Below are positions 1-62,940 of a stretch of DNA of 64,000 nucleotides, piece by piece. Source of the stretch: Psammoneis japonica. Taxonomy: Eukaryota. The translations under genes and the position numbers were made by a program. The stretch spans positions 1 through 64,000 of the forward strand of contig QPGO01000014.1 of the NCBI GenBank assembly GCA_008632985.1, in the 5' to 3' direction. Positions within the stretch are counted from its first letter, which is position 1. The number at the start of each line of letters is the position of its first letter. The notes beneath the pieces are model-generated. The model did no database searches. It worked only from the letters and a program-made list of their open reading frames with translations, and was not told the origin of the DNA.

Positions 1-3000
1 AGGTTTCGAACGGCAGGATCGGGGGTAGCGGAGCGGACGTTGGACCGGTGGAGGATCTTCTGAGTCTCGTCAGATAGAATCTTGAAGGTCATCTGGTGGC
101 CGACGTGCTCCGCAATGCCAACGAAGCGTCCACGCAACTCACGGGATTCGGACGGCCAATCGGAGTCATCGAGGTGGAAGCACACGGGTTCCCACCAATG
201 AAAGCGAAGCAACGGGCTGATGTCCGGGGTGGAGCCAGTGAGAGTCTCGAGGGGCGTGCGCCAGTGGAGACGTGGGGATGCTGCATGGTTGAGTGTGAAG
301 CACACGCACATGAGCGCCAGCAGCCATGTGTGGGCGGGCAAACCAAAACGATCCATGACAGTGTTCGCCATGCGCTTCACGGTCTGGCATCGACGTTCGG
401 CAAAGTTTTGGTGTTGCTGGTGAGGCTCACTTTGCCAGCTAGAGATGAAGAGGGCGCGCAGGATCCCGAGCACTTTGTTGCTGATCTCAACTTGAGCACG
501 GTCGCCAGTGAGTTTGGATGGGGCACCACGTTCACGGATCTGATCCTCGAGTGTGTTGACAAACTCTTTGTCCGTCTCAGTGCCGCAGACGTCAGTGACG
601 GCAGACTCGGTGCCAACAAACAGTTGGGCGCTGGTGCAACCAGAGTCGACGGCCGGGGTGTCGGCACAAACGGTGTCAGTGGCGATGGGCTCGTTGCGGC
701 GGTGCACATTGAGGGCGGGGTTGGGTGATTTGTGGGCCTTGCGAAGGTGTGCACCGGCGGGCATGCGGGCGCACTGCGTGGTGCAGTCAAAAGTGCGACG
801 GACCGCATCGGCAGGTAAGAAGCCAAAGCAAGGCCGAAGAGACTCAAAGGGGGGGTCCTTGGGCTGGACAGTGCACTCCGGAGGTGGAACGTCGTCGCCC
901 TGGGGGCCAAACGCATGCAGATGACACTCGCAGAACACGTCGTCGTTCGGAATGAGGTGATCATCGAGGGCGGACGCGTGATCGGCAGACAAGGAAGCAG
1001 ACATGATGGTCTCGTTGACAACGACACGATGACGGTAGTTGCCGCATTCATCAAATGGGTTGGCAGTGGGATCGTCCTGCAGGTCAGAGATCGCGTCGCA
1101 CCACTGGTCGTCGTCAGTGACAGAGTGATCGAGGACGGAAGGGTCCCATGTGTCATCACCGGTGAGGATGACATGGGGCAGGGTGTCCCATTCGGCGTCA
1201 GTGTAAGGTCGCATGGCAACACAAGGCAGGCCAGCCTTGATGTCAATGGGGATGACACAGCCATCAGGAGTGGCAATGCGTTGCAAGCCGTTGGGCACCT
1301 TGACAGAGCGATCGTTGACATCCTGTTTGCACCATTCGAGCTGGCCGCAGGAATGGATGGTCTTGCCCTTGCCCATGCATGCGCACTGATGGAGGATGGC
1401 AATGACGGGACCACGCTGGGTCTCAACAACGGCACCAGCGGCGACAATGGGGATGTCCACCAATTGATGATCGTCAATGCCCTGAACGTCGACTTGGCGA
1501 GAGGTGCGTGCAATGACGCGAACGTCGTCGCCAGCAATGCCACCGTTGGCCCCACGATCGACTAGAGCCCCAGTGCGTGTGGAGCGATGAGCAGAGGCAG
1601 AGCAAATGACATTGTGGTTGTCAACGCGGCGGCAAGTGCGGCCGTCAAGTTCTGTGTCATCTGCAGAAGCTGGCGGGGTAGAGGAAGCGGTGGATGGCCC
1701 CGGTCGACTGGCATTGTGGGCTTGGTTAGGAGACAACAGACGTTGCAGATCACCGGGTGGCAGTGGCTTGCGCTTGGTGAGGTGCGCCAGGATGGGATCA
1801 TCCGAAGTGGCGTCCACATGTGGAGCGGAGTCACCAGAGTCAGCAGGAGTCGTGTTGGACAAGTTGACATCACCGTCGCTCCCAAGGCGTTGGTCGTGAA
1901 GGTTGGCCGTAACAGACTCATGGCAGTTGCTGGCTTGCGGGTTGCGGGGAGGTGGATGAGAATGCTCAAGGATGATCGCCTTGGAGGAATCGGGCAACGA
2001 ATCCCAGAGCCGTTGGTGGTCGGGAGGGAGACGTCTCCATTGGACACCGGTGAGGCTGGGACCGCGGGTGCAGGCAGCATTGGCCTGAAGGACGTCAATG
2101 TCGCTGTCAATGTCGTAGAACACATCGTCGGACGGTTCCTCGGAGCAGACGTCATGTGCGCACATGGCGCGTCGGGGAGCTCGAGGTGTCGTCTTGGGTT
2201 GAAACGTGCTGTCGTGCTGAGCTGCCGCGGAGAGGAGCAAGCCACAGCATTGATCGCATGTGAGGCTCTTGCCACTCTGCGTACGATGCTGATCAGCTTG
2301 GTTCTTGACAGCACGGAGTTCCTCGACAGGGTGCACGGCATTCTCGAGCATGACGCGCTTCTGTCCTTCAGAGAAGTGGTCACTGGCCGGGATGAGTGCC
2401 TCGCACTTGCGCAACTGATCTTGCCAATGAAGGATGAACCCGTGGGTCGGACCTTTCCAAGTGCCATCACCAAGACGTGCGGTGGTCAGGTGCGTGAGCA
2501 GGGTGGAGGACTCGACAGATGCGCGGGTGGAGGCAAGCGCGTGCTCAGACAAGGAGCGGCAGACGGTCTGTGCGTCAGAAGAACCCACATTTTCGCGAAT
2601 GAGAGCCTTGCCCTTGTCGGTGAGAAGGATGCGTTCGAAGATGGCAAACGTGTGCTTTTGCTGTTCAGCAAAGAGCAGTTTGTCTTCGGGGCTGGTCGGT
2701 TTGCACGACGAGTCTAGAGTGCACTCGACGTCTTGGGCACGGGCTTGTGCCACAAGTGAGGTGTGCCAAGTGTGCCACTGCTTGTCGGATTTGAGAGCTG
2801 TGAAAGCGGTGGGGTCACGCTTGATGCCTCGCTTGAAGTCCCGCACCGGGTCGCGTGCCTTGGTCGGGTTGGTGACATGTGGAGGTGCAAGGGGTGAGCT
2901 GCCGATGGACACAGAAGACATGCAGTCGGGGCTGAGGCAGCAGGCAAGGAACTCGTCATGCGTGAACAAAGAGGAGTCGTTGGCAACGTCAAGACCTTTG

Positions 3001-3254
3001 TGTGCTTTGACAATGTGCAGACTGACTGGTGCTGCCAACATGTTCTTGTGACCACGGGGCAAAGGGATTGCATCAGTGCCGTTGTCGCACTCAAGCGAGT
3101 CGATTTGGGACGGTGTGAACGTGAATGGTTCCTGATGCGAGTCCATGCCGTCTTGGGCCAAAGCCAAACGAAGAGGACTCCCAGCACCTTGGGCAAGCAC
3201 GGTTCCAACCACGTGCTCGAAACCATCGGTTTGTTGCTGACGAGTGAGAACCAT
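1..3254 (-). CDS. Copia gag-pol polyprotein, partial; frame open for about 1084 codons but hypermutated (Tyr almost absent)
   Basis: ATG at 3254 (MVLTRQQQTDGFEHVVG...) is in the same frame as the integrase motifs at 1-780. The ORF track lists nothing in this frame, consistent with no stop before the window edge. Confidence 0.85.
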   Translation of the reverse strand, partial: MVLTRQQQTDGFEHVVGTVLAQGAGSPLRLALAQDGMDSHQEPFTFTPSQIDSLECDNGTDAIPLPRGHKNMLAAPVSLHIVKAHKGLDVANDSSLFTHDEFLACCLSPDCMSSVSIGSSPLAPPHVTNPTKARDPVRDFKRGIKRDPTAFTALKSDKQWHTWHTSLVAQARAQDVECTLDSSCKPTSPEDKLLFAEQQKHTFAIFERILLTDKGKALIRENVGSSDAQTVCRSLSEHALASTRASVESSTLLTHLTTARLGDGTWKGPTHGFILHWQDQLRKCEALIPASDHFSEGQKRVMLENAVHPVEELRAVKNQADQHRTQSGKSLTCDQCCGLLLSAAAQHDSTFQPKTTPRAPRRAMCAHDVCSEEPSDDVFYDIDSDIDVLQANAACTRGPSLTGVQWRRLPPDHQRLWDSLPDSSKAIILEHSHPPPRNPQASNCHESVTANLHDQRLGSDGDVNLSNTTPADSGDSAPHVDATSDDPILAHLTKRKPLPPGDLQRLLSPNQAHNASRPGPSTASSTPPASADDTELDGRTCRRVDNHNVICSASAHRSTRTGALVDRGANGGIAGDDVRVIARTSRQVDVQGIDDHQLVDIPIVAAGAVVETQRGPVIAILHQCACMGKGKTIHSCGQLEWCKQDVNDRSVKVPNGLQRIATPDGCVIPIDIKAGLPCVAMRPYTDAEWDTLPHVILTGDDTWDPSVLDHSVTDDDQWCDAISDLQDDPTANPFDECGNYRHRVVVNETIMSASLSADHASALDDHLIPNDDVFCECHLHAFGPQGDDVPPPECTVQPKDPPFESLRPCFGFLPADAVRRTFDCTTQCARMPAGAHLRKAHKSPNPALNVHRRNEPIATDTVCADTPAVDSGCTSAQLFVGTESAVTDVCGTETDKEFVNTLEDQIRERGAPSKLTGDRAQVEISNKVLGILRALFISSWQSEPHQQHQNFAERRCQTVKRMANTVMDRFGLPAHTWLLALMCVCFTLNHAASPRLHWRTPLETLTGSTPDISPLLRFHWWEPVCFHLDDSDWPSESRELRGRFVGIAEHVGHQMTFKILSDETQKILHRSNVRSATPDPAVRN

Positions 3255-3511
3255 GGCAGACAAAAGTGGTGTCAGGACAATCAATTCTGGTTGGGAAGAG
3301 AAGGTGGACTCGAAACTTGGGTGAGAACAGACTTGACTTGAAATGGACTTGACTTGAAATCTTGAACTGTCTTAAAATCAGAAGTCGCCGGGCTTTGTCA
3401 TCCCGTTCGTTGTCAAGTGCTGAACTTCCTGTCCGGTCCGCAGAGTTGTGCCGGCACGTCCGAACCCGCAGCCAGCGGCTCTTTGGGTTGCTTGCGAGCG
3501 GAGCAGCGGGT

Positions 3512-4038
3512 TGTAAACCCCTGCAGGTGAGCTGACTGGAGGTGGACAAGACCCCCGAACCGTTCTCATTTTATGTCGGTTGGATTTCCCGATCAGGCTG
3601 GCCAGTTGACGCAGGCGTCAGGCGCTGTGGACGAACAAACAAACGTGGGAAAGCACCCTCGCCCCAACGCAGGCTGCAATCACGGCTGCTTGCTCTCACA
3701 GTCGTCCTTGTGGACCTAGCAGAACTGCAGAGCACCAGCAGTCCGGGGTAGATCAGGTACAATGGACTCGGTGTGCCTGTAGAGTGGCAGCAAAACCGCA
3801 GTCCGAAGAGTGGGTACAGGTTCTTGGCCGTGAAGATATGTATATATATATATGTCTTCAGCGACGAAGATCCTTGAATATGTAGGGTTCTTGACCGTTA
3901 ACCGATGAATAGGTATATCAAGGGATGAGGATCAAGGATAGACTTGGATATGACCGTTGAATGTATGTCTTCAGCGGTCAAAGGTAGTATAATCAATCCA
4001 GATATCCAGCGGTAAGGAGACTTGACGGTGACGTTAAC
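3512..4038 (-). repeat. Putative 5' LTR of the Copia element
   Basis: Non-coding sequence upstream of gag, ending ...GGGTTTACA on the minus strand at 3512, with a (TA)n/TATA-like tract at about 3840-3852. The partner LTR is outside the window, so the boundaries are unverified. Confidence 0.4.
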
Positions 4039-4368: not shown

Positions 4369-7300
4369 CGCGCGTGAACGCGCGGAACTAAAGCACACAA
4401 AACTGTGCACGGTAAACTAAACAGCGCGCGATGCTTCGCGCGCACCTAAATCCTGTTCAAATCCTGTCAGCAAAATTCAAGAGCACAGTGCTGCAGGTGT
4501 TTTTGACATGTGGTGACAGCATGCCAGGGTGCTCATCTGGCATTGGTCAATCTTCCATGTCACCTCATTTTTGTTGATGATGTTGATTCTCATTCACAGC
4601 AAACAGAGAGTTTGTCATCAATGGCACATCATTGGCATTGCAAGTGTGCAAAGTTGAGCACAATGGCTTGCACCAGCCAAGCAAGCTGCACACAAGAATG
4701 CTGGACATGAGAAAGGCCACAGAATGGCACATGGCAAAGTGGTAAAAGATGCTTCAACACCTGCTTGTGGAATGAAGAAATGGTGCTGTTGCTGCCCCCA
4801 GAGTTGCTGCATTGCACCAGGAGTGTGGGGTTGAAAATTTCAGAGCCAAGATTCCAATCAGTGAATGAGTTGGCATTGCAAGAAGCCTCTGAAGTGCACC
4901 TTGTTGGATTGCTTGAGGATGGCAACATTTTTGTGCCATTCATGCCAAGTGTGTTGCCATCACTCCCAGAGACCTCATGTGTTGGCTCAATGCATTCATT
5001 GGTCATGGGGGGTGTTTGCAGAAGAGAGGGCTGTGGTCTGTTGATTGGAAGCAAGAAACATGCATGACCAGTTGCAATGATGTGTCATGGGTCATGGGTG
5101 CACATGTCATTTGGCTTCCAGTTCAATGATGACAAGGTGGTTTGTGTGTGTTGTGCATTGGCAGTGCTTTCTTTGCAATGTTGCACAATGGTGTCTTGCT
5201 TGTGATGTGTTGTCTCATGTGGCATTGCACACAAAACTCTGTTTTGGGATGTTGATGAGCAATGTGCAATGTCTTGCATCTGTGTTTGACAGAGCGATGA
5301 ATTCATGCAAATGCAACCACAGCACAGCACTGACCTTGTTCATTTGCAACCTGCATGATGACCACAGAGTCTTTCAGCCTCTCTCATGCCATCACACCTG
5401 CCACAAACATTCATGTGTGGGCAGCATTGCCACAGCATGAGAAAGGACACTCAATGTCAGCAGACAAGAAGCCCCACATGCATGCATGCACACTTGACAA
5501 AAGCAAGCAACTCAACCTTTCATCAACAACTCAGACACCAACAAATGTCATTGAATTTGATGCTTCACAATGACCCCAAGGCCGCCAAACAACATGGACG
5601 TTCTTTTTCTTGTTGTTTGCCACCACCAAGTCAGAAAACACAAGAAGATGGAAAGAAACTGCTGCAAGATGAGAGGCAACTTGGCAACCAGAAAAAGCTG
5701 CAGCCCTTTTTTCTTTGATGCAGCCTCCAGCTTCTTCCAGCTGCTCCGCTCAGAGTGCAAGCTGTTGCAAAATCCAGCCCTCCACAATCCTTGACAGGAT
5801 GTGGCACTCCACTTGTTGCTGCCACACAAGTGCAGCACATGTGTTTGTGTGGCTTGCAAAAAAATGTGGAAACATGGTGAGTGAAAATGCTGAGTTTGGC
5901 TGCTGTTGTTTGGGGCTGTCAAAAACAATGAAAGAGGAGCTGTCACAAAATGCAATGCAGCCAGTGTTCAAGAGGGCAAACTGGCTGGTGCAAAGAAGCC
6001 TTGCCCAAACAAGCACAAATTCTTCTGTTTCCTTGGTGTTGGAAATGGCTCTGCCTGAACTCAGCTGCACAGCCACATGCTGCCTGCAATGAGTGGCTCC
6101 TCTCAAGTTCAAGAAAAGGAAACAGAGGAAAGACAGTTCATTGACTTGACATGAAGTTCATTGTGACATCTCTGTTCATGATGCAGCGGGGTCATTCTCC
6201 ACCAAAGACAAAACTTGCCAGGAAGGAGCGACAAGAAGAAACATGATGTTGTTTGGAAACCTGTTTGTGGCAGCCAGCAGGCATTGTCCTGCACAAATGT
6301 GCACATTGCCAATCTCTTTCCTGATGCAGGGGGAGGAAGCAGCAGCCTGCAATGGCAACAGCAGTGCTAGCATGCTGTGCCACAAAGTCCAACTTGGGTG
6401 CAAGCATTGTGTTCAGAGTTTCCCACCAGCTTGTTCTCTTTGGCTGTCATTTCAAAGAGGTCTGCAATCACAGCCCATGGGTTCTTGCCCAATTTTGAAA
6501 ATTTGAAACTGATTTAACCAACTTTCTGCACTCACAATTGCACCTTCCATCTGGGAGTTGCTTGCAGCACCAACCACAGCTTTTGATGCAGTGAAGATCA
6601 CCACAGTGCCCCACAATGGCACCTCCCTGTTCTTGCCTCTGTTTTGGCCACACAACAGACATGTGCAAAGGAGCCAAAAATTATGGGAGGGTTTAAAGCT
6701 CCTCCTGAAAATGGAGATGCCTTGTTGCTTCAATCATTTTCTCAAAGCATTTCTTGGGTGTGTGTTTTCCTTGCCACAGGGGCCATTGGCAGGTGCTTCT
6801 TGGGGCTTCATCATCTGGCAAAAGCACCACAGCAGCTGCAGGGTCAGACCTCACACATCCCATGTTGCGAGCACAGCAGTCTTTGAGATTGAAAGGGGAA
6901 AATGGGCAAGTCAACAAAAAACAAGCTCTTTGTTCCTCAGCAGATGAGTTTTTGATGCTTTGCCACAAGAAGCTTTCCCCTCAGAGTCCTCGTCATTGTC
7001 CTGCCTTGTTGTTGTTGCCACCACAGCTGTGCTCCTTGGGAGGCAAGAGACTGATCCCTCTCACAGCCACATTTGTCACCAGCATGGCCACTGTGTGATG
7101 TGTCATCATCTCACTGTTAAATTGTCAAAGTCTTTCATCAACATCATTTGTGACATTTTTAGATTGTTGGCTGCATTCTCAAGATTCAAAACATCCCTCA
7201 TCTCACAAAGTCAGTCATTGATGTCTCTCTTCAGTTTGCAGCCATGCTGGTTTCTCCATGGAGAACACTTTCAACACCATCTGCTGTTGCACTGCAACCT

Positions 7301-8320
7301 TGAGTTGCAGCTCTCTCATTGTAGCTCTCTCATCAACACAAGCTGTTCCACAAAATCTTGGCTGGTGCGAGCCCCAGCCGGTGCTGCGTGGCACTCATTC
7401 TGCCACCAGAAAAGCACTGTCAGTTGGTCCACTGAAGCTTCCATCTGCTGCCAATGTTGATTCATTCATTTCAACCAAATTGCCATGTTGTCTCTCATTC
7501 TGAATGACATCCCCCATTGGTGTCAGACAATGCTGCACCGACACCCCCCTTCCGCTGCCATTCCTCGTTGACAAGCTGGTGCCAGCACTTGCACGTGCCA
7601 AGGAGCCAACCTTTGATCCCCAACACACTCCAGTTTGAAATGTCATTGCCAGATCATTTCAAACCAAACCCAGGCTGAGTTCCTTTGACTCTCTGAGTCC
7701 CCTGTCCATCACTGACTGTCACTCAAGTGATGCCACATTGCAGGATGCTCTTGTTGCGCTGTTGATCATCAAGCTTTGCTTGGCATGTGGGTCCACAAGT
7801 TGTTGACTCAAGAGCATCTCTGTTGGTCCATTCTTGAGTTTGTTGCATGCATCAGGCACTGCAGCAGCTACAGCAAGTCATCCTTTCAAGTCTCTGCCCC
7901 ATGAACACACGCCTGTTGCTCCCACACAACTCCCCCCCCTTCACCAGCTCTGTTTTCCAAGATCCGGCATGAGTCCAGCACCATTCTCTGCAGCTCTGCC
8001 ATTTGAAGCATGACTGTCTACAGCACCACTGACCATGGGTCCACCACCTCAGCCACTGCCCCTGTGTGGCGGACCTCGTCAAACACTGGCTTTTCTTTCG
8101 ACACTGCGACTCTCCCGCTCCTCTTCTCACTGGCCTCTTCATTGTGTCTTTTGTTGTCTCACATGTGTTTTGCGCTGTGTTTCCATGATGACCAGATGAT
8201 GCACTCCATGGCACAAGCACCAGCAACAGTGAGGATAACAGCTCCAAACAGGTGCAGTGGTTGCAGACCGAAAGTCTTCCATCAAAATTCAAACAACGAA
8301 AAACCCAACACACACGATGG
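4369..8320. mobile_element. Degenerate TpA- and CpG-depleted repeat block, unclassified (possible Helitron-like end at left)
   Basis: About 11 TpA in 4490-8320 by hand count and very few CpG; two GC-rich hairpins at 4369-4384 and 4424-4443; contains a histone H3 relic. Confidence 0.55.
4663..5006 (+). pseudogene. Histone H3-like pseudogene (divergent tail, internal deletion, frameshifts)
   Basis: MACT..KQAAHKNAG; GMKKWCCCCP.VAALHQ; EPRFQSVNELALQEASEVHLVGLLEDGN; CAIHAKCVAITPRDLM.LAQCIH are colinear with H3 [73 protein letters not shown]. Confidence 0.85.
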
Positions 8321-26353: not shown

Positions 26354-26363
26354 TGTTGGTGTT

Positions 26364-26954
26364 TCGTCCTGGCAAGCACTGAAGTTGAGCCAGAGAAAGT
26401 GAGACTTCTGTCGTCGACAAACAAAAAGATTTCCAGATTTGTGGGCGATCCCCGGTCAGCGATTTCACCGATTTTGAATTCGCCCGTTGCTGTCACACTG
26501 ACCCAAAGACAGCTAAATTTGTTTAAATTTTTCGAATTAGAGAAGATTTCTTCCAATGTAATGTTCGGATGAGAAGGTGTATATGAATGATAACAGCTGA
26601 TACTCAAGAGTGTCACATAATGAAACATATATACAGTTTGTATCGCTTATTCAAAGATNTCGTCCTGGCAAGCACTGAAGTTGAGCCAGAGAAAGTGAGA
26701 CTTTTGTCGTCGACAAACAAAAAGATTTCCAGATTTGTGGGCGATCCCCGGTCAGCGATTTCACCGATTTTGAATTCGCCCGTTGCTGTCACACTGACCC
26801 AAAGACAGCTAAATTTGTTTAAATTTTTCGAATTAGAGAAGATTTCTTCCAATGTAATGTTCGGATGAGAAGGTGTATATGAATGATAACAGCTTATACT
26901 CAAGAGTGTCACATAATGAAACATATATACAGTTTGTATCGCTTATTCAAAGAT
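26364..26954. repeat. 295-bp direct duplication separated by a single N (probable assembly join)
   Basis: 26364-26658 and 26660-26954 are identical except for two substitutions; N at 26659. Confidence 0.9.
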
Positions 26955-40780: not shown

Positions 40781-40837
40781 TATTGCAACGATTACAAGGC
40801 GTAACTACTCAAGCTGTATCGTTGTGTCGTTATCATC

Positions 40838-43482: not shown

Positions 43483-43649
43483 CCTTGGCCTAGAAAACTT
43501 TATTCCAACGGAGATAAGAAACAATGATGGGTGCGGCTTGGTTCGGCTATCTTCGTTCTATTCTGAAAAGTTCTGATGAAAGCTATCGCATGAATCTGTG
43601 GTGGTCGCGACTTTCCACCGTGAGCGCGCAGAGGTGGAGAGCACTAACT

Positions 43650-48382: not shown

Positions 48383-48468
48383 AAATCAGGCTACACCAAT
48401 TGCCAATAATACTTGCTTATTTAGTCTACACAGAACAATAGTTCCACGTGAAACAACTACACTGTGAT

Positions 48469-49881: not shown

Positions 49882-50393
49882 GCCGTGTGAATTTCTCTCC
49901 TACTAAGGTTTCGCAACAGATTTGAAGCTCACGGTTTCCAAAATCTACAAACAAAGAGAACTAACGATGTTTTAGGGTGTTTGTAGCCATCGATCTTCCA
50001 CCTCCACCGTCCACCGCCATTGTGCGATGTGCGACGTGCTGTCGGTCTTATCGCGCGCTTCGCGCAACTTGAAGTAGTCGAAGCGATCGATCTCATCTAC
50101 TCGACTGCGTGCAAGCAAGAAGCAAGATTAAAGAAGCGAGAAGAGAACTCCTGGGCCCTGTCTCTAGCTAGTCTTGTCGATGATATTAACAGTGTACTTG
50201 CATGGATGAGTGTCAGTTTGTTGTATTTGGATTTGTAGATACTGCAATGGCTGGTGGGCTTCTCGTTTTGCAAACCGATCCGACTGAAAGTCGCGGATGC
50301 CGCGTGCCATGGATGCACACTTCCAGTTAAAACAACTCCTTGCGTTGCTTTACTTGCTAATCGTCAACTAACTAAACGCTGCATGCTGAACCC

Positions 50394-53378
50394 ATGAGGC
50401 TCCTCTTGGTCGTCGTGTCCTCTCCAATCGGTCTGTCCCGCCAGCGACTGCCCTTGCTGAGACAGAATCATCGTCGTTCGCAGCTACTCCTGGGCTTCTC
50501 GCCCGCAAAAACAGGCTTCGGCATGATCTACATGCCCAACACAATCTCGCTCACGAGATTTTGGATAACAAAGTTCTTCACGCTGATGCCAAATCCGACG
50601 TTTCTCGCCAGTTGCAGGATCCTTGCACTGGGTTGGTGTCGGAATCGTTGGCTCCCCCGGATCGCCAAGTGTCTTTGCATCGTCGGAGTTCTTTGAGAAT
50701 TGCATGTCTTCCCTTCAAGTCAATCGGGCAAGAATGTTGAGTTATATCGAGTCGATCAACGATGTCTTCCAGCAGCATTAGTGAGTCTCAATTTTGTTCT
50801 TTTTGTGGCCATTTTGGTTCTCGGCACCCAGCGTGTGTTCGTGAATCTTTGTGTTGCTGCTGCTCATGTTTGGCAATGTTTGGTTGTTTGTCCATTTCAT
50901 GCATGTCTTCTCACCGCTCAATTATTTGATATCCGTCTCATAGCTGCTTCTACGATGTCGCCAAAGACCCTGATGCAAGTGACCCCAAGTCCCACCAACC
51001 AGAGCTGGATGGACATCTTTGGAGAAGGCGAAGGCCAAGTTGACATTGTTGGTAGCCTGAACAAGACATTCATTGATGTGAATGCCAACGGAGCAACAGC
51101 AGCCACCTTTTGGGAAGTTGCAGGGGTCTTCAATGTCCAAGAGATGCTCACGTGACACTGCCCCAGCTACGTCCCGAATCGGTTGCCAACTTTTACACTG
51201 GCTTGTTGGTTCCGCTGCGAAGCATGGTCAACCAATCCACCACCGACAGTGAATTCTTTTTTGATGACGCTAATGACATTCAGCTCAAAGTCACGTGGAC
51301 AAACCTGGATGGAACCACAGAAGAGGAACTTGTGGATGCCATGAATGGCAAGAGCGTTGAGCAGTTTTTGACGGACTTTGTTTCGTCCCCTGCTTGGCCG
51401 TTTGGTCCCACGCAGTCCATTGGTCCAAGGATCAACTTTATCTTGGCCACCGTTGATTTCTTCAATGTTGGGTTTAGATCCAATGGAAGGCCCTCTGATT
51501 TGGTCCCTCCATCGTTTGCTGTTACGTGTGAATCGGGCTTTGAAGAAACCTGCTTCACAGCCATTTCTTCGGCGCCATTCAATTCCCTCATTGCGTCGGA
51601 CGGAACTAACATTGCTCTGGACAGGGCAACCGCACAGGCTTCTTTGAATGCTCCCGGAAATGCCTGCTTGAACTTCGTCAAAATGCTCGGTGACATTTCT
51701 AATGCACGATCCTTTGATGTCGTTGAACCCGTCAAGCGAGATTCTTTCTTGGCGGATTTGGGGACGAGGCGGGGTAAGTTGCAAGACGAGAAAGCTGATT
51801 TCACCTTTGACGAGGTGGTTTCTCTCGAGGATGTCAAAGGCGATCTGGTTGATGCCTTTGCCTGCAAGATTGAGGATGACTGCGCCATTCTTAAAGTGCA
51901 AACCTTTGACATTTTGCCCGAAGACATTTTGTCGGTGTGGCGAGACATGTCCCTGGCCGCCAAGGAAAAGGGTGTGACGAAGCTGCTGATTGACATCTCG
52001 TCAAATGGTGGCAGTGTTGTTGTTTCCGGCAACTCGCCAGCTGTTGTGATGTTCCCCGACATGGAGCACAGCCTTTGAGGATGCATGCGATGTCACGTGC
52101 AATGCTCAAATGGCACAGCAGTTTGTTTGCATTGGCTCTGCACTGTTGAATTACACATCACTCACATGGGTCTGCCTCGCCCTTAGATTGTCTGTGACTC
52201 TACAATTTTTCCATTGAGTGGCGCACTGATTGACGCCATTCAAGGCTTGTCTGATGATGACCTGCAGCGGGTTATCAACATTCTGCTCTCTGAGGATGTG
52301 AATGTGGTGGAGGCTGCAGCCAGTGCATTGCGGGACTTCTGCTGTGACAATTGCCTGTCACTTGGCAGTTGCAAGTCAATTAGATGCCAGGTGCTGGATT
52401 TGCTCGTGCAGGAGACAAATGACTTCATTGCCAATCCTGCTCCTCAAGAAATCAGAGTGCTCGGAGACACGCTAACCCTGGTGTTGCGAGTTTTCAATCC
52501 TTTCACCGTTCTTGGAGCAGCGGACCTCAAGGAGTCGGGGCGCATCACGTTAACCGTGGTGGTGAAGAAGTCGACCTCTCTGACCATTTCACCATCTTTG
52601 CGCAAGACAATTTCACTGACGCTCAAACAGCATCAAAGGAGTCGGGTCACTCGTTCGACAACTTTGTCATCTTGTCGGATGGTGTCGCTGGATCGACTTC
52701 ATGCTTGTTTGAGTCCATGGTGTCTCAACTGTGGAGGAACCGCGCCAAGAGCAACATCGCTAGCAGCGTTGTGACTGTGACCTGTGGTGGCACGGGCGAT
52801 GCATCAGATGTGACGGTGACTGGTTTTCTGGCGTCTGTGCAAGACGTGCACCTGAATTCCCAATTGTTGCAAACGGAGCACTGTTCATGCTGGAGACGTT
52901 GCTGCCGGACAACGCCGACATTGCCGGGACAGTCAGGTCTGCAAGAGAATTGTTTCAGTCTGTGTTGCCAATCCCTCCATTTTTTGGCAACACTTTGCCA
53001 GTCATGCCCGTCTTCAACTGCTGTGATCCCTTCATGCAACCTGGAGCTCTTCCCTTGCAATGCGTCAAGATCCCAACTGATGAGCACATTGGTGAACTGC
53101 ACCAAAACGTAAACCTTGCGGCATCAACGAGCGACTTGGCCATTCTCTGCCCACAAGCAGCCACCTTCTTCCACAACGGGACGGTCCCACCCATGACCAC
53201 ACCGACGCCACCGCCGACAACATCACCATCTCCGCCCACCACCACTTCGTCTGCATCATCCCCTCCCACCACCACGTCGACACCTTCGCCAACTCCTTCG
53301 GCCACTTCGAAACGCATGGGGGTTGCTTTGGCCATGGGACTCTGCTTGTTTTCATTTGTTGCAAGCTGTGTTGCATGA
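50394..53378 (+). pseudogene. Secreted/membrane-anchored S41-like (tail-specific protease-type) peptidase pseudogene, TpA-hypermutated
   Basis: Signal-like start, RQLQ pro-peptide, CFYDVAKDP, RDAHV, LLIDISSNGG, ILSDGVAGSTSCLFES, VTCGG, Thr/Pro/Ser linker and hydrophobic C-terminus; introns at about 50781-50943 and 52083-52187; several frameshifts. Confidence 0.65.
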
Positions 53379-54999
53379 GACTCTTGTGTGTGTGCATTAA
53401 ACAACCTCGCATCTGTGATGAGTGCCATTTGGTCATTGCCACATGGCTGCAGTTCCTTGGTTTTAGATTCTGGGGAGGGTCGTGGTTGCATCATTTTCCA
53501 AAAATTAGTTGGCGATGATGCATGTTTAGGTGTGGCTCTTTGAGAACAGCGCAGCATGCTCACTTGCACACATCATTGTTTTGTCGTTGCGGCAAATCAT
53601 GGCAAAGATCCCTGCCTCCTGTGATGATGAACCAAAAGCAAGTCTCAACTCAATGACAATGAACATTCAATCTGACAATGATTCAAACAAAACTGCACAA
53701 ACAGCACAGACAGAACGCAAACAACTAAAGAGGGAGACTCTTGTGTGGGTGAGGCTGCACCACAGCAATGCTCCATCTCACCAACTCTTGCAGCACCACC
53801 CAGGCTCTTTCCAGAGAGGGCATGCCAAGCCAGGGAAAGAGGAGAGGACAGGTGGACAGGGTGACAAGGAGGCATGCTGTCCAGCAGAATTTGAGATTCA
53901 GTTTTAATTTCCTCACCCTCGTTCAGGGTTTGCCCTCCTTCCCCATGAGCACAAGAAACAATTTGGTGTTGTCTTCTTAGAAATGCATCATTTTCCTCTG
54001 TTTCATGCAACAACAAAAATTCTGTGGTGCGCAAATTTTTGTTTTTAAAAGGCGCAGCATTTGAAGTCCAACTTAGAAACAAATGACAACATTTTGTCAA
54101 CAGCAAAATGCCAATTTACAGCATGCAAAGAAACCACAGTGACTTGGGCCTGTGTGCAATGTTCTCACCTTGCAGTGTGCTGTTCTCAACATTTTGTTTG
54201 GCCATTTCTTTCCAGTTGCTCAGCTTGCAAAACAGCTTTGCCTGCAATGCAATCAGCTTGTTGCCAGATTTTTGAGTTTCTGCACAGGATTCCCTGGGGC
54301 ATTTCTGTTTGAGATGACTTTTTAGGAAGCTGGCCATGACTCCACTTTCTGCATGCCAAGCCAAAGCCCCATGGAGGATTCACTTTGACCAAGCATGAGT
54401 TGTCATTGCCGAGACTGTTTCCAAGCATGCAACAACTTTGCAGTGGTCTTTTTGGGAGAAAAGCAATGCAAAACAGCTGCAATGAAGCCGCAGATGGGCA
54501 GCTGCTTCATTGAGATCTCCGCAGGTCTGTGGAGATTTTGGCCACACATGAGGGCAGTTGTGATGTCATTGACTGGCACTGCATCTGTGCACATTGTGGC
54601 CAGCTTCAGTGCATTTTTGAGTGCATGGCCTGCTTTTGACCAGTGCATTTGGCCGGCCCACAGCAGCATGGACATTCTTGGCTCTGGGAGAATGCACCAC
54701 TGCCAGAGAATTTTGCAGAGTTCTGCCATGCAACCAACTGGTGTGCTTGATGCACAGCAAATTTCTTGTGATTCAAGTGCCTTGAGGCATGGGAACAAAG
54801 AAACTGGACAAACAAAGCCAGTGCCTGTGGGTGAATCCAACACACTGTCAAGGAACAAAACAAGAAACTGTGTCTTTTTCCTTTTCTGTCACTGATGTCA
54901 TGCCATTCCCACTGGTCTCAGAACAAGATTTCACAACAGAATGGAAGCTTGCAGTTTCGGCAAGATGATTGGACTTTCTGAATTTTTTTTGCACCAGAA

Positions 55000-57900
55000 G
55001 CTTCGTGCGCGCTACACACATCTTTGCCAAAAATCAGTGACATGACGGTGGTGCGTTGTTGCAATGATGGCAATGACAGCAACGTGTCCCAGAGTCTTTT
55101 GTCATTGTGGACATTCAGTTCATAAAGTTTCAGAATGCACACAGTCATGAAAGTCCCCAAGAGCAAGGTCCGTTCAAAAGAAAAACGTCGCACCAATGCC
55201 GAGCGCCATTTTCCGACCTGTCACTGTCATGCATTCATTGTCGAACGACTGAGACTTTGTCAGGGGGACTTTCTTTACATGAGCGCATTTAACACAGTCA
55301 AATTGATCATTGTGTTGAGCACCCATTGCAAAGTCTTTCTGTGAGAGCGTCAGAAATGTCATCATCATCGTCGGTGTCAACGGCAATTTGTCGTGCAAAT
55401 CACAACAAATGCACCACTGTCATCTGTCTGACATTGCGCTGCTGTGTGTTCATTGTGCGCATGCCTTGGTGTGCATGTTTGTCTTCAACATCAAACAAAC
55501 AACCAAGTTTGCAGTGCATTTAAGTCTGCAAATGCTCAATGTTTTAAAATGTCCACCTGCCCCACGCCATTCTCAAGACATTTGAGAATGGCGTGGAAGA
55601 AAAAAATGTCACAAGTTGTTGAATGGATGGCCCAACAATTGTGTTGCAAAATGACACAAAATTCGGCCAAAGTCACACAGCTGCCTGTGTGCGCGACACA
55701 CAGCATGATCCAAAAAACTGTTGATGTCACAGTTTGGCAGTGCGAGGTCCCACCCAGAGCTGGAACTTGTCAGAAGCCACTGAAAGAACATGTTTTTGAT
55801 TGGTTGTGATCTGCAAGCACAGACAATGACAACATCAATCTGTGTTTTGTTCTCACTTTGCTGTTCTTGCCACACGCTTTGTTCTCACTCGGCTTTTCTT
55901 GCCATCTCTTGGTGCATCCGTAGCTGGCTGAAACAATGTGCTGTGTTTTGGGCATTGTTCTGTGTGGTGAGTGTAGATCTGATGATGTCAATTAACTCCA
56001 AACATGACATGCATTTTGCTCACAACTCTTGGTTCCGACTTGCTTCTCTGGGTCTCTCGGCAGCCTCTGTTGGTGTTGCAAGCATGACAACTTGCGGGTT
56101 CCCTGGGAGGCAAACAGACAACAAAATTTCCACAATGACAAGGTTGTTGAGATCAATTTTGCCTTGGCACAAGCTTTGCAAGATGTGTTGACATCCCAAG
56201 CCACCCCAAATGAAAATGCCACCACAGGCTTTTGGATGTCATGGTGGTGAGCACACAGAGACCCACTTTCCATTGCTTTCAACCCTTCAACCACCAGGGG
56301 TCTGCTTGAGGACTTGTGATGTGTCATGCACTTTTACATTGACACAATGAACACAACACAAAAATGTCACATCACGCACAATCTGCGCAAAGCACACCAC
56401 CTGCACTCACTTGTTGGGAGCAAATCTCCGCCGGTGGAGATTTGCCCCAAGGGTGTGGCATCATTGCTCCATTTGTGATGGCAATTCATGATGACCTGCA
56501 TTGTCATGGGTTGAGGTTTAGTTGCTCTCCATTCACAGATGAAGCTTGCAAAAAACCCAGTGTTAAAAGTTGACATTGAACTTTCTAATTGCAAAAAGGG
56601 TTCCCCCAGATTTTCTGCGAGTGCACGTTCCAAAACAAAATTGCGTGGATCAAATGTCATCCATGTCTGAAATTGCTCCATTTGCTGCATTTGTGATGTA
56701 AGTGAGCCAAGGCTGGTGGTTGAAGGGCCAAGTGTGCTGTTGCTTTCACACACGTGTGAACAGCACAATCATTTGGCCTTGTCCTGCAGGTGGAGGAACA
56801 GCGCACTCAACACCGGGTCTTTCAGGACAGAGTGGCATGCTGACAAGCTGTTGGCACAACTGTTGCAAGATTGCATGGGGCTGGAGGCTGTCCGCATGCA
56901 CTGGAAGCTCTCCCATGTTGCTGCTGGCAGTTGCTCCTTCAAAAGAATGATCAATGAAAAAAATTGACCAGTGTCCGGCCGTGTTCGATCCAGAAAAAAT
57001 GGGTGTGAGAATGACTTTCGACATGTCTCCCAGCCTCCAGACTTGTCATCGGCAACTGCTTTCACCCATCTGTCGATGTCAACTCAGCTGTGTCATTGCA
57101 GCTGGTTGCAAACATTTGCACTGACAACTTGAATGCCAAGTCAAGAAAATTGGTGTCGGAGCAAGTTGCAACACCCCTGAATGACATCATTGTCAATTGG
57201 TGTCCCACTCCAAAGAATGTCCCACACATTCGGCGCATTGACAGGAACGCCATGAGGCAGCCTCAGTGCATTGGTTTCTCCAATTGCATGTGTGCAGTTG
57301 TTGTGGTCTGCCAGCACTTGGGTTTCTCTCTTGTCCAGCAAAACCTCCCATTGCTGATCTCCATTTGTGAGCATGTGATCTGGCGTGGATGTTGCCAACT
57401 CAACTGCAAACTCTGCCAGTTTTTGTCATTTCCCCACATTCTTTAATTTGTTGCTCTGTTTTCTTTTCAGATCCTTCTCCTCTCTTGTGCACTGCACGGG
57501 CTGTTTCAAAATCATGCCCTTTCTGCCACAAAACTCACATGAAGACTTGTTGCAGCCACCGCAAATGCTGGCCAGAGCACTGCAAAGACCAACCCAGGTG
57601 CACTGCCTGGAAGGATCCGATGACTCTTCCTTCCCAGTTTTGTGCTTTTTTGTGCTTGGAGCATTGCCACCACAGTGCTCACAACTTCATCGTGTCCAGC
57701 TGTTGCACTGCCACGCCATGTGCTTGCAACCTAAATCCCAACAAGCACAGGCTCTGCTTTGCTGCATTGACTTAACTTCAGTTTTTGATGAGGGGCCTGA
57801 ATGGGAGGAATGCATGTTGAGGCTCTGTTGCCATCACCTCCCCTTGTCGAGAGTTTTAGATTTGATTTCTGTGACGCGGTGGAGCCCTTTGCTGCAGGTG

Positions 57901-60900
57901 GAGACTCTGAACAATTTTGTTGTGCTTGTCCTTCATTGTCAACTTTGCGTGCTTGATGGCTTCTCTTCATTTGTCCTTTTCATGCTTGGATTGGACCATG
58001 GAAATGGTTTTGGGGAAAATGTTGATTCTGTTTGATTGTTTCTTGTGTGAAATCATCAGTCACTCACAATCACATCGGTCGGGTGCTCCTGTCAAGCTGG
58101 ACAACCATTGTTTTCACATGATGTGGTCTTCCTTCATTTTGTGCAGAGGGGGGGGGGGGTGCCGCAATCCAAGACGCTTTGCCATGAATTTTGTCAATGG
58201 ACTCAACACTGGATCAGGCTCGTCAGCATGCTCCACAAATCTTGGATCTGGCATTGCCTTTCTGACTCAAACCCAATCAGTTTGGGTTGGCTTCATGTTT
58301 GACAGATTTGCATGGCTGGGAAGCACAAGCACATTGAAGAGTTTTTGAATGGTGTTCCTGCAAATCATCAAGTGTGCGAAAATGCAGGTGGCCAGCGTTG
58401 GGCTCTCCACAGTGCAAAATGCCGGTGTTGATGTTGTGACGGAACGCTCGGAGCACCAAAACAGACAGTGTGCAGCTTCAACACTGATCACTTGACCAAC
58501 CAAAAGCACCCAAAGTTTCTGATGGAAATTTTCTAACCTGTTGGTTCTGCTGCCACGCCACCAGAGTTGGAGTCCATCAGAATCTGTGCATTTCTCTCTA
58601 CAAACTGAAACATTGGGAACAGGGTCAAACCAACCTTTCTCTGCTTTCATTGTTGCATTGACAAACCATTCATCAAGTTCTGGGGTCAGACAATGTGGCT
58701 TGAATGCCTCACTCTCTCAAACAAATTTGTGTGCAACTCGGAGATTGGACATGTGCACATCTGCAATGGGGCACAGCACGCGGACGCGAGTTCTAACATG
58801 CTCCTTGTTGCAGTGCTCACACTCTTCAATGTCTTCTGGAGAATGTCCTTTGGATTTCAGTGCCTCACACATTGGATTGCAGTCTTTGTCATTCCCAATG
58901 AAGGGTGCCTCTTGGGCGAGTTCACACAGGCATGGACCAACCAGGCAATCCCGACACACGGGAAGAGCATCCATCACATGAAACATGTCATTTTTGCACG
59001 GCTTTGAAGCTCATTCTTTACATCATTGTCAATGTTCAAAGCCTCAAGAAGCATGTCCAAGATTTCTTCCAGTGTTGATTCATGCTGGTTGCCAGACGTC
59101 TTGGCAGTGTCCATTTTGGCAGGGTCAGATGCAGAATCGGGCACTGATTGCAGTGTGTTGAGCACTGCACGAGTGGTGTCCCCCCTTGCTGCTGCATCTT
59201 TTTGTGCATGCTCTGCAGGCAACTCATTGTCAGGTGCTTCCAGTGGTGGCATTTGAAGATGGCTTGTCTGGAGAACCGCTGCGTCAGAGCACCCCCTTCT
59301 GCAAACGTCTCTGATTGGCGTGCCCTTGCTGCAGTTGGGCTCATCAGCATTGCCATCTGCAAATCCACATGGCAATTTCCATGATGGCACCAGCACTTCA
59401 TCAATTTGCACCAGTGCATTTCCTTGGCCCACAAGCTTGCCACCATGTTTTGTCAACACTCCCATGCCTCTGCAGCTGCCGATTCGAACCATGGTGCCTC
59501 TGGCTGTGACAAGTCCTCCACCAATTGCGCCCACCATGCTGCCAGGTTTCACTGGATTAACCTCTGGTGGCTGACACAAACTCCAAGTTTTGCAGAAACA
59601 AGTTGCAGCAAATGCACTGTGAGAAGTCTGTGCACAATTGCGTCAGTTGCTGCCTGCCTGAGTGTCTCCTCGTCACGGTTGCGTGATGATGACTTGCTCT
59701 CACAGTTGGTGCTTTGTCCAGTCTCTTTGTCCAACAACATGACATTCAGACAACACTGACACAGTGGTGTTTCCCAAATGTGCATTTTGGTTGGACCAAA
59801 TTGGCATTTTGGTTGAACCAAATTTGTTGACAAATTTGATGCTGGCGACCAAAATGATTTTGTTTCCCAAAAACGTCATTTTGGTGGGCAGAATTTGGCA
59901 GGAAATCTTGTTGGAAAGCGAGCACGTCAACATGCCATGCAAATTTTGTAGAAGCTGCATCAGCAATGTTTGTGTGGAAACATGCATGAAAATGAATTTG
60001 GTTGAGATTTCGCAAACATCAATTTGGTCGACCAAATTGATTTGGTCGGTCTTGCAATTTGGTCAACAAAAGAGTTTTGGTTCAACCAAAGTGCCAATTT
60101 GGTCTAACCAAAATGCACACTCGGGAAACACCAGTGCCTCAACACCTGTGGAGCCACCATCATCATGTGTTTTTGCTGTCTCTCCAATCTCCAAACAATC
60201 TTTGATTTTTGTTCCATGGCCCCTGAGCAGTTGATTCATGTCACCGCCAATTTGCCTGCCACATGGAATGAGCCATCCATCTTCCAACATTTTCTCCAAC
60301 CAATGTGGGAATGCCTTCACAGCACGTGTGTCATTCACAATGACAGGCAAGCCCTCAAAAGACACCTGAAGCCAACACATGCCCACTTCAACAGTGCGGC
60401 CTTGGCTCCACTCTGTGTCAAGCCCATGGTGCTTTCTGGAAGAACCAGCATGAAGATTTATGATGTTCTCACAATTCTCCTGGAAAAAGTGATTTGCATT
60501 GGCTGCATCACAAAAATGACAAAAACTTTCACATGGCTGTCACAAGACCGGCATGTCAGATTTAGGGATGTGTGGGCTGACACCATCCTTCAGCTCTGTG
60601 CAAGACAGTGTGAAAAAAAGATGACAGGCAAGAAAAATGAAGCACACACAATGAGCTTTCAAAGAGGTGAATGGTGAGTGGCACCTTTAAAAGAATGATT
60701 TGCCACATTCAAACTGCCCTTTACATTGTCCATGTCAAATCAGCTGAGCTTGGGTGAACCTTGTGCCTTCCTTGCCACCTGAATGCGATGGAGCATGGGC
60801 TCAACTTCGTCTTGTCCTTTCCCAAACACAGGCAGACCAGCACTCACTTTCCCAGATCCTGCCATGAGATTGCAAGACACAAGGAACGGTTTCACCTGGC

Positions 60901-62940
60901 TGCCATTGGAAAGGCATGCTTGAACCTTGCTCCAGTGCTTGATTGTCTGTCAATGGCAATCTGTGCATCTTGGTTACACTCAAACGAACCTTGCATGCAC
61001 TCCTCTGGCACATCCTCCATGAAAATGTCAAAGCTGCTTGCAACCCTGGCAGCTGAAAGTCATGTCCCCCATTGTGTGCTCCTGGCTCTGCAAAAGCCAA
61101 GTGCAGAACAATGTCCTGCCCCTGGCATCCAACAGCTTCAACTGGATCCCACCCAGAAGACTCTTGTGGCAGCTGCATTGCTGCCAAGAACAATCAAATG
61201 ATCATGTCTCATCAACCATTGATGAAAATGCACCAGAAAAATTGGAATGGTTGGCCAAACAAGACAAGCACAATGCCATGCTCTGGTGCATTCCAGGCCC
61301 TTGGCAACTTGTGATGAAATCAAATTGCTCTGCCATCTCTGGAGGCAGCTTTGACAAGTGCAGAGGGGCAATGGCAGCAAGAGATTTTGCAATTTTTCCA
61401 TCATCATCCACCCTGCCACAGCAACACAATGATGAAGCACCCACGCTGCTTTCATCCACTCAACCATCAGTCAGAATGCCAGTCCCTTTGACTTGGTGTT
61501 GGTTTTGCCACAAAATTCACAAACACGCTTGTTTGGCAAGTGATTGGGACAGACCATTGGCGGAAACCAAAGATGTGCCCAGCAACTTCCAAGGTGCCAC
61601 TTGTCAGGTTTTGGCAACGAGCCCAAACCAGTGCTCAGTGGATCGCAAGCTGCCAAATCAAAAAATTTGCAACATTGCAAAATTTGCAACAAACTCCGAA
61701 TCCCACACAATCGCCATGCGGTGAGTCAAGAAACGACCCTTGTCACCCTCCAAGATCGTCTTTGTGATGCAGGCAACATCCTCTGCTGCAATTCAAGGTG
61801 CAGGCACTCTTTCTGCTTTGATTGAGAAAAGACATGATGCACGAGAAATGACAAGAAACCCTCATTTCAAAGGAAATTGACTTCTTGTGACAGCAACTCA
61901 TGCCGACGCATCACAAATTTCAACAAAAATGACCTTTTTGGATGATCGCACTGCCTTTCCTGACAAACAAAACGTCACACAGCTCTTCACAATGAGAACA
62001 ATCCACTGGTTTGTTGTTGCATGTCACTTGACAGACCTGTGGTTGCCAAAACAGTGGCGTTTGCTCATTTGAAGCAAAAAATGAAGCACTCAGAGACCTC
62101 GCACATGCTTTCATCAAGAAAAAATTTGAGCCATTTGTCTTTGTAAATTAGTTTGCGATTCGCAAATTTTGCGTTTCAGTGGCAAGGTGGCAGCATCCAT
62201 TTCATGCCAGATTTGATTTTTGACATTGTGCCACCATCTTTCTTTTGTGATTTTGCGTTGATCTCACTCAAACAATTGTGGATGGGAGTGTCCTTGGGAG
62301 GCACACGGGAATCACGGTGGCACACCGCCGACTGCTGCTGCGTCTCTTGCACAGCATCATCTCTGTCAAGAATCATGTTGATCTCATCTTGATCATCCAG
62401 TGAACATGGTGCCACCACCAATCCAGGAACAGAGTGACAATTGCCTGGACATTCAAATGTGGCTTGAAGGGTGGGAACAGCTCACTGCCATGCCTCTTGA
62501 CAGCACTTGTGGCATTTTTTGTTGGGGGCGAGAGATCATTGTCGGCGTGTCATCGAGTGTTCTGCTTTGCTGCCTCAAAAACAGGATGCAAAGCTCCCCT
62601 TTTCTTTTTTTTGAATCTGCAAAGCTCTCAGCAGAAAATCCTGAAAAATCAAATCGCCGTGCCTTCACCCCTTTGTTCTGCGATTGCCTCAAACCCGGAT
62701 GCACTGCGTTCAAAAACGCATTTGAAAATGGTCTGGCAGTCATGCGGTTGATGGGTCTCTCTTTTTCTGCACAGGCAAATGCGCACAATTCTCTAGAAAG
62801 TCCCATCCTTCTTTCTCGTTTTCAAATGCTCCGCCCCCAGTTGAAAAACACCCGCCCATTGTGACGAGCTTCACGCACCTTGAAGCAGTCGAAGCGATCG
62901 ATCGACGGACGACGCACGCGCGCGATCGCGATCGACCATA
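55000..62940 (-). mobile_element. Degenerate DNA transposon: DDE transposase-like remnant with C-terminal Ulp1/C48 protease domain
   Basis: Minus-strand fragments SRAK.DMFHVMD (about 58965-59005), RTNRLENFHQKL (about 58510-58560), IDNDVIQGCCNLL, GHWSIFFID, DSL, NDCAVHTC (about 56745-57200); ends not defined. Confidence 0.6.
59762..60136. mobile_element. MITE-like insertion (about 375 bp) with about 60-bp terminal inverted repeats
   Basis: Left CAGTGGTGTTTCCCAAATGTGCATTTTGGTTGGACCAAATTGGCATTTTGGTTGAACCAAA matches the reverse complement of the right end CACTGGTGTTTCCCGAGTGTGCATTTTGGTTAGACCAAATTGGCACTTTGGTTGAACCAAA with 5 mismatches. Confidence 0.85.

Follow-up and report, generated by a model that had tools for sequence, protein, structure and literature searches.

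Hypermutation directed at repeats is, to our knowledge, known only as a C>T chemistry, namely repeat-induced point mutation (RIP) in fungi and APOBEC in vertebrates. Among the processes that change adenines, phase 2 of somatic hypermutation (SHM) is sparse and strand-biased, also hits AA and follows no known 3' pyrimidine rule; ADAR is, as far as is known, specific to metazoans and favours a 3' G; and the natural substrate of TadA carries a U before and a C after the target A. Natural TadA/ADAT enzymes act on tRNA, and we know of activity on DNA solely from directed evolution. In the present study we analysed a stretch of 64,000 nucleotides of Psammoneis japonica (assembly GCA_008632985.1, contig QPGO01000014.1, positions 1-64,000; hereafter the window), in which ordinary diatom nuclear genes are interleaved with six islands poor in the dinucleotide TpA (blocks A to F). 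An earlier note, made from the sequence alone, had ascribed these islands to a repeat-targeted hypermutation of TpA to TpG or CpA, a 'reverse RIP'. In the reading that we favour, with a probability of roughly 0.6, the islands consist of repeats or junk that have been silenced in the nuclear genome of a diatom and have undergone a real, locus-restricted and sequence-specific A:T to G:C hypermutation at TpA.

Size and borders of the TpA deficit

The observed/expected ratio of TpA was measured in sliding 1-kb windows and as block totals. In the 1-kb windows the ratio was 0.00-0.2 in the islands, compared with 0.43-0.88 in those lying wholly between islands. The block totals were 0.09 for block A (positions 1-3700; measured over 1-3300), 0.04 for block B (4450-8300; measured over 4550-8300), 0.02, with only two TA, for block C (14300-15650; measured over 14350-15650), 0.05 for block D (29450-40600; measured over 29500-40500) and 0.09 for block E (43600-44450; measured over 43550-44450). 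Block F consists of a partly converted island, F1 (50500-53500), with a ratio of 0.17 over 50600-53500, and an old island, F2 (53501-62900), with a ratio of 0.06 over 53501-62800. In the gene regions, pooled over 28.3 kb, the ratio was 0.63. Together the blocks cover approximately 33.3 kb, i.e. 52% of the window, in agreement with the earlier description of six nearly TpA-free blocks that make up about half of it.

Exact TA counts were 13 (1-3254), 11 (4490-8320), 2 (14281-15720), 41 (29350-40560) and 72 (50600-62940), against 87, 163, 55, 477 and 527 expected at the host ratio, and the Poisson probabilities under this host-like expectation ranged from 1e-21 to 1e-147 for these intervals, and from 1e-10 to 1e-147 overall. 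The first four counts reproduce those made by hand in the earlier note (13, about 11, 2 and about 40). TpA is 4- to 30-fold depleted in the blocks, and the observed/expected ratio of TG plus CA is 1.5-1.9 (1.4-1.9 for TG and CA taken singly), compared with 1.17-1.18 in the host regions. The intervening genes are ordinary, as had been claimed, both in TpA (0.63) and in tyrosine, which amounts to 3.9% of the residues encoded by the host open reading frames (ORFs).

The borders of the islands are sharp, as the note had also stated. At the left border of block B (approximately 4441-4450) TA and CG, each present at 3-10 per 100 bp, fall to 0 within a few bases. The islands end 50-600 bp away from gene starts: block C starts approximately 240 bp upstream of the start of an EamA gene, block E begins approximately 50 bp from the start of a CS-domain gene, and block F2 terminates where ORF 62884-63789 starts.

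Polarity, motif and separation from CpG decay

The direction of the change was read from two comparisons. In one, an intact TYW2 gene (ORF 48469-49899, minus strand; Pfam families TYW2_N_2 and TRM5-TYW2_MTfase; ordinary TpA and CpG) served as a stand-in for the ancestor of a duplicate located inside block F2. The duplicate (54517-54966, minus strand) corresponds to the 5' end of the gene (49500-49944, minus strand), to which it is 70.6% identical in blastn; tblastn aligned amino acids 22-133 with 37.7% identity (E 1.6e-9), and a transition-tolerant local alignment of the pair scored 304, compared with at most 51.5 in 10 shuffles. None of the 21 host TA sites was kept in the duplicate (11 became TG, 5 CA and 5 other dinucleotides). 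The 19 host CG sites fared similarly (11 CA, 7 TG, one kept), while host TG was retained at 19 of 32 sites and host CA at 22 of 25. Counted per adenine, A>G changes had occurred at 6/12 TAY, 3/10 TAR, 14/58 VAY and 4/75 VAR, and AAT was changed in 6 of 16 cases; the TAY rule was obeyed at four of the five interpretable mixed sites. C>T changes outside CpG were found at 7 of 89 positions, and indels and transversions were also present. An excess of A>G at TpA, the lack of which the note had listed among its possible refutations, is seen in this polarised comparison.

The other comparison concerns block A, occupied by a minus-strand ORF (3-3371) of 1123 codons without a stop codon or frameshift, which extends past the edge of the window; TpA-free DNA continues beyond it to approximately position 3700. 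The encoded protein (P0001) has 10114 homologs. Its residues 40-1118 align to the N-terminal 1092 residues of P0003, in which the RVT_2 domain occupies residues 1367-1577. Since RVT_2 lies downstream in the full-length homologs P0003 and P0010, the ORF represents the gag-protease-integrase part, i.e. the 5' part, of a Ty1/copia-type long terminal repeat retroelement, whose own reverse-transcriptase part falls outside the window. Pfam recognised the gag, protease and integrase parts in none of the four proteins scanned.

Conserved columns were defined from an alignment of 45 relatives of at least 700 amino acids with more than 2% tyrosine, shorter and tyrosine-poor sequences among the 150 homologs being excluded. 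Only one of the 14 conserved tyrosines was kept in block A, the others being replaced by cysteine (10), histidine (1) and phenylalanine (2). At the remaining conserved columns 256 of 288 residues (89%) were kept, a value towards the top of the leave-one-out range of the 45 relatives (59-94%). This indicates that only codons containing TA have been destroyed and that in all other respects the copy is in the condition of a live element. According to our reading of the alignment table, the A>G-type replacements His>Arg, Asn>Ser and Asp>Gly occur in 0/46 conserved columns with VAY codons (those of His, Asn and Asp), compared with 10-11/14 at TAY; conserved Asn (AAY) was kept in 6/6 cases. A T before the target A was strictly required in block A. 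The protein contains 0.3% tyrosine and 3.5% cysteine, compared with a median of 3.4% tyrosine in the homologs, 4 of 150 of which contain less than 1%. Other tyrosine-poor public homologs carry, at conserved tyrosine columns, seven cysteines and three histidines (P0002), four and two (P0134), and three cysteines (P0082).

These data bear on several claims of the earlier note. Its mutational polarity, TA to TG or CA, is borne out by the TYW2 duplicate and by the conserved tyrosines of block A, and the statement that no stop codons are created agrees with the 1123 open codons. Four unrelated protein relics had been reported, and two of these, the copia-type ORF of block A and the TYW2 fragment of block F, could be verified; the other two could not. 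The replacement of Tyr by Cys or His was recovered, whereas the Leu to Pro and Thr to Ala replacements claimed alongside it were not seen in block A, where they affect 0/30 and 1/15 conserved columns, respectively.

The 140 TpA sites surviving in the blocks are not random with respect to context. Raw block counts divided by gene-region counts (over 32.8 and 28.1 kb, respectively, strand-collapsed) gave residual ratios of 0.005 for ATAC/GTAT, 0.014 for ATAG/CTAT, 0.022 for GTAC, 0.028 for ATAT, 0.07 for ATAA/TTAT, 0.11 for CTAC/GTAG, 0.14 for GTAA/TTAC, 0.20 for CTAG, 0.39 for CTAA/TTAG and 0.57 for TTAA. RTAY, which presents TAY on both strands, has residual ratios of 0.005-0.03, and YTAR, which presents it on neither, 0.2-0.57; mixed contexts present it on one strand. 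The preferred motif is A>G at 5'-TAY-3', equivalent to T>C at RTA on the other strand.

The same preference emerged from a mass balance by purine/pyrimidine flank class, a property that transitions cannot change, in which TA plus CG lost per kb was compared with TG gained. The predicted and observed gains per kb were 20.0 and 23.2 for RY flanks, 12.5 and 11.8 for YR flanks, and 39.6 and 39.1 for YY plus RR flanks. TA and CG are both needed as sources, so that CpG decay explains only part of the dinucleotide shift. Mixed-flank sites favour YTGY (A>G before a pyrimidine) by approximately 4:1 when an even CpG split is allowed for. The conversions TAC>TGC and GTA>GCA account for the excess of GpC (1.3-1.4), and TAT>TGT and ATA>ACA for the deficit of ApT (0.72-0.86).

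Measured against the family baseline, block A has lost most of its palindromic GTAC (0.3 per kb instead of 3.5) and is enriched in both GTGC (8.0 instead of 2.8) and GCAC (11.3 instead of 4.1); as a baseline for strand-specific spectra the family is confounded by the higher GC content of block A and its pyrimidine-rich sense strand. TG and CA are approximately equal in every block. The rise of both GTGC and GCAC, the parity of TG and CA and the occurrence of both Cys and His replacements mean that both strands were hit; editing confined to one strand, whether of RNA or of cDNA, does not fit this pattern.

CpG decay is a separate process. Decay of the kind expected from deamination of 5-methylcytosine (5mC) is present in blocks B to F, with CpG observed/expected ratios of 0.12 (B), 0.29 (C), 0.09 (D), 0.41 (E), 0.70 (F1) and 0.33 (F2), and in the TYW2 pair, where 18 of 19 CG became TG or CA. 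In block A, however, approximately 86% of TpA has been lost (ratio 0.09) at a CpG ratio of 0.91, and in F1 the two ratios are 0.17 and 0.70; the oldest blocks are low in both. As the note had argued, 5mC deamination cannot account for such a loss. The reverse situation was found in metagenomes: five relatives of the block A element (L002, L013, L018, L035 and L074) have CpG ratios of 0.14-0.24 at TpA ratios of 0.49-0.78, i.e. they show methylation-type decay without the TpA process, in other genomes. TpA loss without CpG loss and CpG loss without TpA loss point to two processes. TpA is almost gone at a stage when neither CpG decay nor indels nor nonsense changes can yet be seen. Methylated CpG is among the fastest-mutating sites known, and outrunning its decay argues for an active and probably enzymatic process. 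The TAY/RTA motif and the two-way uncoupling of TpA and CpG loss are additions to the earlier observation.

Low TpA is not native to the block A family, the one identifiable family of transposable elements (TEs) in the islands. Its 79 metagenome loci have TpA ratios of 0.27-1.02, and of the 1542 1-kb windows drawn from them, only eight fall below 0.25, all in a single locus, L061. In this locus the ratio is 0.09-0.2 over the coding part (0.15 for 785-3514) and normal in the first 750 nt; 19 Tyr codons are retained together with just six other TA, compared with approximately 110-170 in intact relatives. L061 has the appearance of an element that may still be live and has rid itself of the TpA it could spare. 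Selection on a live element exposed to TA-directed mutation would be expected to produce such a pattern; native avoidance could produce it too.

Contents of the islands and neighbouring genes

The host genes identified with Pfam encode EamA, MatE, DAGAT, endonuclease/exonuclease/phosphatase-family, ERG4/24, CS-domain, mitochondrial carrier, CRAL-TRIO and TYW2 proteins. The top named relatives of the host 7-dehydrocholesterol reductase come from Odontella, Pseudo-nitzschia, Cylindrotheca, Cyclotella, Seminavis and Ditylum (64-80% identity).

Block A has a GC content of 0.59 and approximately 75 CpG sites per kb, compared with 52 in the host regions (or approximately 74 compared with 42 for the family baseline). 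This richness may be native to the subfamily or may partly reflect second hits (TA>TG>CG). The 750 bp of normal DNA separating blocks A and B contain a short (TA)n/(TATG) microsatellite (3836-3856) and are unconverted despite a converted island on each side. Block B is an old, unidentifiable island with a TG/CA ratio of 1.90, and block C is a short one placed between the EamA and MatE genes. Block D extends over 11 kb and contains diverged internal direct repeats, in which 29374-29903 resembles 31880-32374, 30135-30407 resembles 38392-38673, and 31328-31723 resembles 38935-39317. Block E is again short. F1 contains long ORFs in several frames; one of them, ORF 51077-52075 (plus strand), encodes 333 amino acids with a single tyrosine. 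It had no Pfam match up to E 5 and no word-based homolog in searches among longer and similar-length proteins; a language-model search alone placed it near Peptidase_S41/CPAF-related clusters (0.93). If this lead is real, a copy of a cellular-type gene has also been affected.

Pfam was run on 126 ORFs of at least 90 amino acids; those located in blocks, all of at least 100 amino acids, gave no family. A scan of 150 of the 359 shorter block ORFs (45-99 amino acids) gave sub-threshold noise only, for example DAGAT at E 0.043, overlapping the TYW2-like piece. A six-frame read-through of block B revealed no Pfam family, and a tblastn search of the window with 150 copia-family proteins gave no match beyond block A.

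Several features of the normal DNA may also be recorded. A 295-bp unit is present in two tandem copies (99% identity) at 26364-26954, inside the 5' part of a gene without a name; the single N of the window (26659) lies between the copies, and an assembly join may be present there. ORFs 25166-26455 and 28133-29179 (both minus strand) are neighbouring paralogs without a Pfam family and with normal TpA, approximately 30% identical over about 340 amino acids (E 1e-40 to 1e-44). A public run whose kind is not recorded (X2) omits pieces of 82 and 121 bases with CT..AC ends within 27821-28154. They fall in ORF 28133-29179 and its upstream part, and would be minus-strand introns if X2, which resembles RNA in this behaviour, were RNA. 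X2 provides no cover over block D, which is not evidence on expression.

Nature of the process

A sequencing or assembly artefact, such as the miscalling of modified heterochromatin bases, had to be considered, and the earlier note had listed it as a possible refutation. Three public runs contain the stretch, none of them listed as RNA; they share a single sample, from which the assembly itself probably derives, and the library type is not on record. Nevertheless, contigs built separately from one of these runs (X1; word depth 33-41) agreed base for base with block D over 1913, 1131, 576 and 545 bp, and further contigs, 90-95% alike, also matched the 20-kb stretch compared with the runs. As X1 represents the same sample, the agreement tests the assembly independently but does not extend to a second specimen. 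Taken with the indels and transversions of the TYW2 copy and with the similar Tyr-poor homologs and one TpA-poor locus in other public data, it leaves an artefact with hardly any credence. Native composition, i.e. element families that themselves avoid TpA, for instance as protection from a TA-directed nuclease or in the interest of RNA stability, finds some encouragement in L061, in which the retained Tyr codons suggest avoidance shaped by selection in a possibly live element. The loss in the window is destructive, though, conserved tyrosines having become Cys or His; a host-derived fragment is left without any TA, and TpA and Tyr are normal across the family as a whole, so that the note's second possible refutation, natively TpA- and Tyr-poor copies, also fails. 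All of this renders the explanation highly improbable.

Editing before integration deserves somewhat more weight, although it too is improbable. It would have the RNA or single-stranded cDNA of a retroelement deaminated at adenine during retrotransposition, so that the borders of the islands would be insertion junctions. Block A is indeed a retroelement, its TpA-free zone stops near the presumed 5' end, borders can be as narrow as a few bases, and Tyr>Cys is more frequent than Tyr>His. Such editing is at odds with the involvement of both strands, with the TYW2 fragment of host origin, as fully converted as its surroundings, and with blocks B to F, where Pfam on the scanned ORFs, six-frame reading of block B and tblastn with family proteins revealed no retroelement feature. 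Finally, TpA might erode little by little together with CpG if methylated or heterochromatic DNA mutates slowly with a passive bias, for example through patches synthesised by Y-family polymerases (eta- or iota-like, with T:G misinsertion) at 5mC lesions or through poor repair of a spontaneous lesion. Both dinucleotides are lost in most blocks, and the A>G changes outside TpA in the old TYW2 pair (VAY) have a polymerase-like appearance. We nevertheless consider a passive bias unlikely, given the state of block A, where TpA is mostly gone at nearly intact CpG, an open frame and non-Tyr conservation as in intact relatives, and given the relatives elsewhere that have lost CpG without TpA. Furthermore, near-saturation and an approximately 100-fold range between contexts are unusual for polymerase error, and Asn AAY, a WA site, was unchanged in all six conserved columns.

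The targeted hypermutation of TpA, by comparison, builds on the observed deficit, polarity, motif, independence from CpG decay and relative speed. In the proposed mechanism the A:T pair of the TpA step would be converted to G:C (TAY>TGY, read as RTA>RCA on the opposite strand). The process would act on both DNA strands to near saturation, stop sharply beside the 5' ends of genes and make no stop codons, and the much slower CpG>TpG/CpA decay, presumably through 5mC deamination, would later erode the same islands. For an A>G change the simplest chemistry is deamination of adenine to hypoxanthine, which might be carried out in DNA by an enzyme of the deaminase superfamily recruited to silenced chromatin; its function would be the inactivation of mobile or duplicated DNA. 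We infer that the process is enzymatic and probably consists of DNA adenine deamination by a chromatin-recruited deaminase with such an inactivating role. Two alternatives are patches made by an error-prone polymerase and the oxidation of thymine to 5-hydroxymethyluracil or 5-formyluracil, whose mispairing with G would give T>C at RTA.

As for the trigger, the parent TYW2 gene is untouched while its duplicate of 300-450 bp is saturated, so the pair does not follow a RIP-like rule by which both copies are mutated; the state of the parent could reflect selection acting on it or chromatin-based targeting. Targeting of silenced chromatin fits the data at least as well as targeting of repeats, and fits the sharp borders at promoters. 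Of the 'reverse RIP' proposal, locus restriction with sharp borders stands, whereas repetition as the trigger is not established.

Several points weigh against a targeted hypermutation of DNA. The polarised evidence consists of one gene fragment of 300-450 bp and one TE copy, and the fragment is small and may have been brought in by a mobile element. In the former, the older of the two, A>G at 14/58 VAY positions may mean that the specificity is looser over long times. Tyr codons following a purine became Cys in 11 cases and His in two, which hints at a strand bias that a symmetric model does not predict. The mass balance presupposes that the blocks once had a host-like composition. Paralogous segments of block D differ by TG/CA discordance at 35 sites (2-8 in controls) that are not enriched in RY flanks; this may reflect CpG decay alone and does not time the TpA process. 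The changes may not have arisen in situ on DNA, and the window contains no candidate enzyme. We are not aware of any natural enzyme that deaminates adenine in DNA in this manner, although no search was aimed at one. Two publications are relevant here: uncharacterised deaminases restricted to stramenopiles have been described, among them proteins with a deaminase-SAM-Tudor array (PMC3239186), and diatoms carry RID-related DNMT4 genes of unknown function (PMC9998398).

A bolder and rather doubtful extension is that some diatoms possess a mirror image of RIP, in which a natural, TAY-specific DNA adenine deaminase would be recruited to silenced or duplicated DNA and rewrite its TpA rapidly and almost totally, mobile elements responding by purging dispensable TpA, as in L061. 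Tyr codons and TA-containing signals would then be erased without stop codons. If hypermutation of TpA is confirmed in this major algal lineage, it would be new both as a mutational process and as a form of genome defence. It would involve an enzyme that acts on DNA adenine, or on the paired thymine, with a three-base motif, which is of relevance to base editing. It would also explain why half of the region escapes homology-based TE annotation (no Pfam match was found among the scanned ORFs in approximately 30 kb of blocks), and the TpA ratio combined with the RTAY/YTAR ratio would provide a simple index for mapping silenced DNA in diatom genomes.

Comparison with known systems

In the accessible part of the literature, including PMC9998398, PMC3239186 and PMC3145265 (most subscription journals lie outside this coverage), we found no description of TpA>TpG/CpA hypermutation. 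Fungal RIP resembles the islands in its near-saturating transitions confined to sharply bounded non-genic or repeat DNA, in its dinucleotide context, in the disabling of TE coding sequences and in leaving an index signature. However, RIP converts C:G to T:A, mainly at CpA, and thereby raises TpA, AT content and the TpA/ApT index, whereas here A:T is converted to G:C and TpA is removed (TA>TG/CA). RIP also creates stop codons, of which the process in the islands makes none, and it mutates both copies of a duplication, whereas the TYW2 parent is intact. Its hosts are filamentous fungi, in which it depends on a RID/DNMT4-type enzyme and a premeiotic stage, and the host here is a diatom. Decay of CpG through 5mC shares with blocks B to F the excess of TpG/CpA typical of silenced TEs, but it cannot remove TpA, which the islands have lost.

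Clustered transitions with a neighbour preference and inactivated retroelements are likewise features of APOBEC3 and ADAR, the latter yielding A>G. The footprints of APOBEC3 (C>U in cDNA) and ADAR (A>I in double-stranded RNA) are strand-specific and limited to retro-transcribed sequences, whereas in the islands both strands and a fragment of a host gene are affected, confinement to a single strand is not seen, and the preferred 3' neighbour is a pyrimidine. Phase 2 of SHM, in which polymerase eta changes WA to WG, is similar in its A>G after T and in its targeting of loci. It differs in that TAY is saturated here and AAY is kept (6/6 in block A); the pattern is neither sparse nor that of a WA hotspot, though the changes at AAT (6/16 in the TYW2 pair) may reflect a weak secondary activity. 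The closest chemical parallel is with TadA/ADAT and the base editors derived from TadA, in which a deaminated adenine is read as G and whose natural target context resembles TAY. An adenine deaminase acting on DNA, TadA-like or other, is our best guess, and the two points that speak for it are this resemblance in context and the existence of the stramenopile deaminases.

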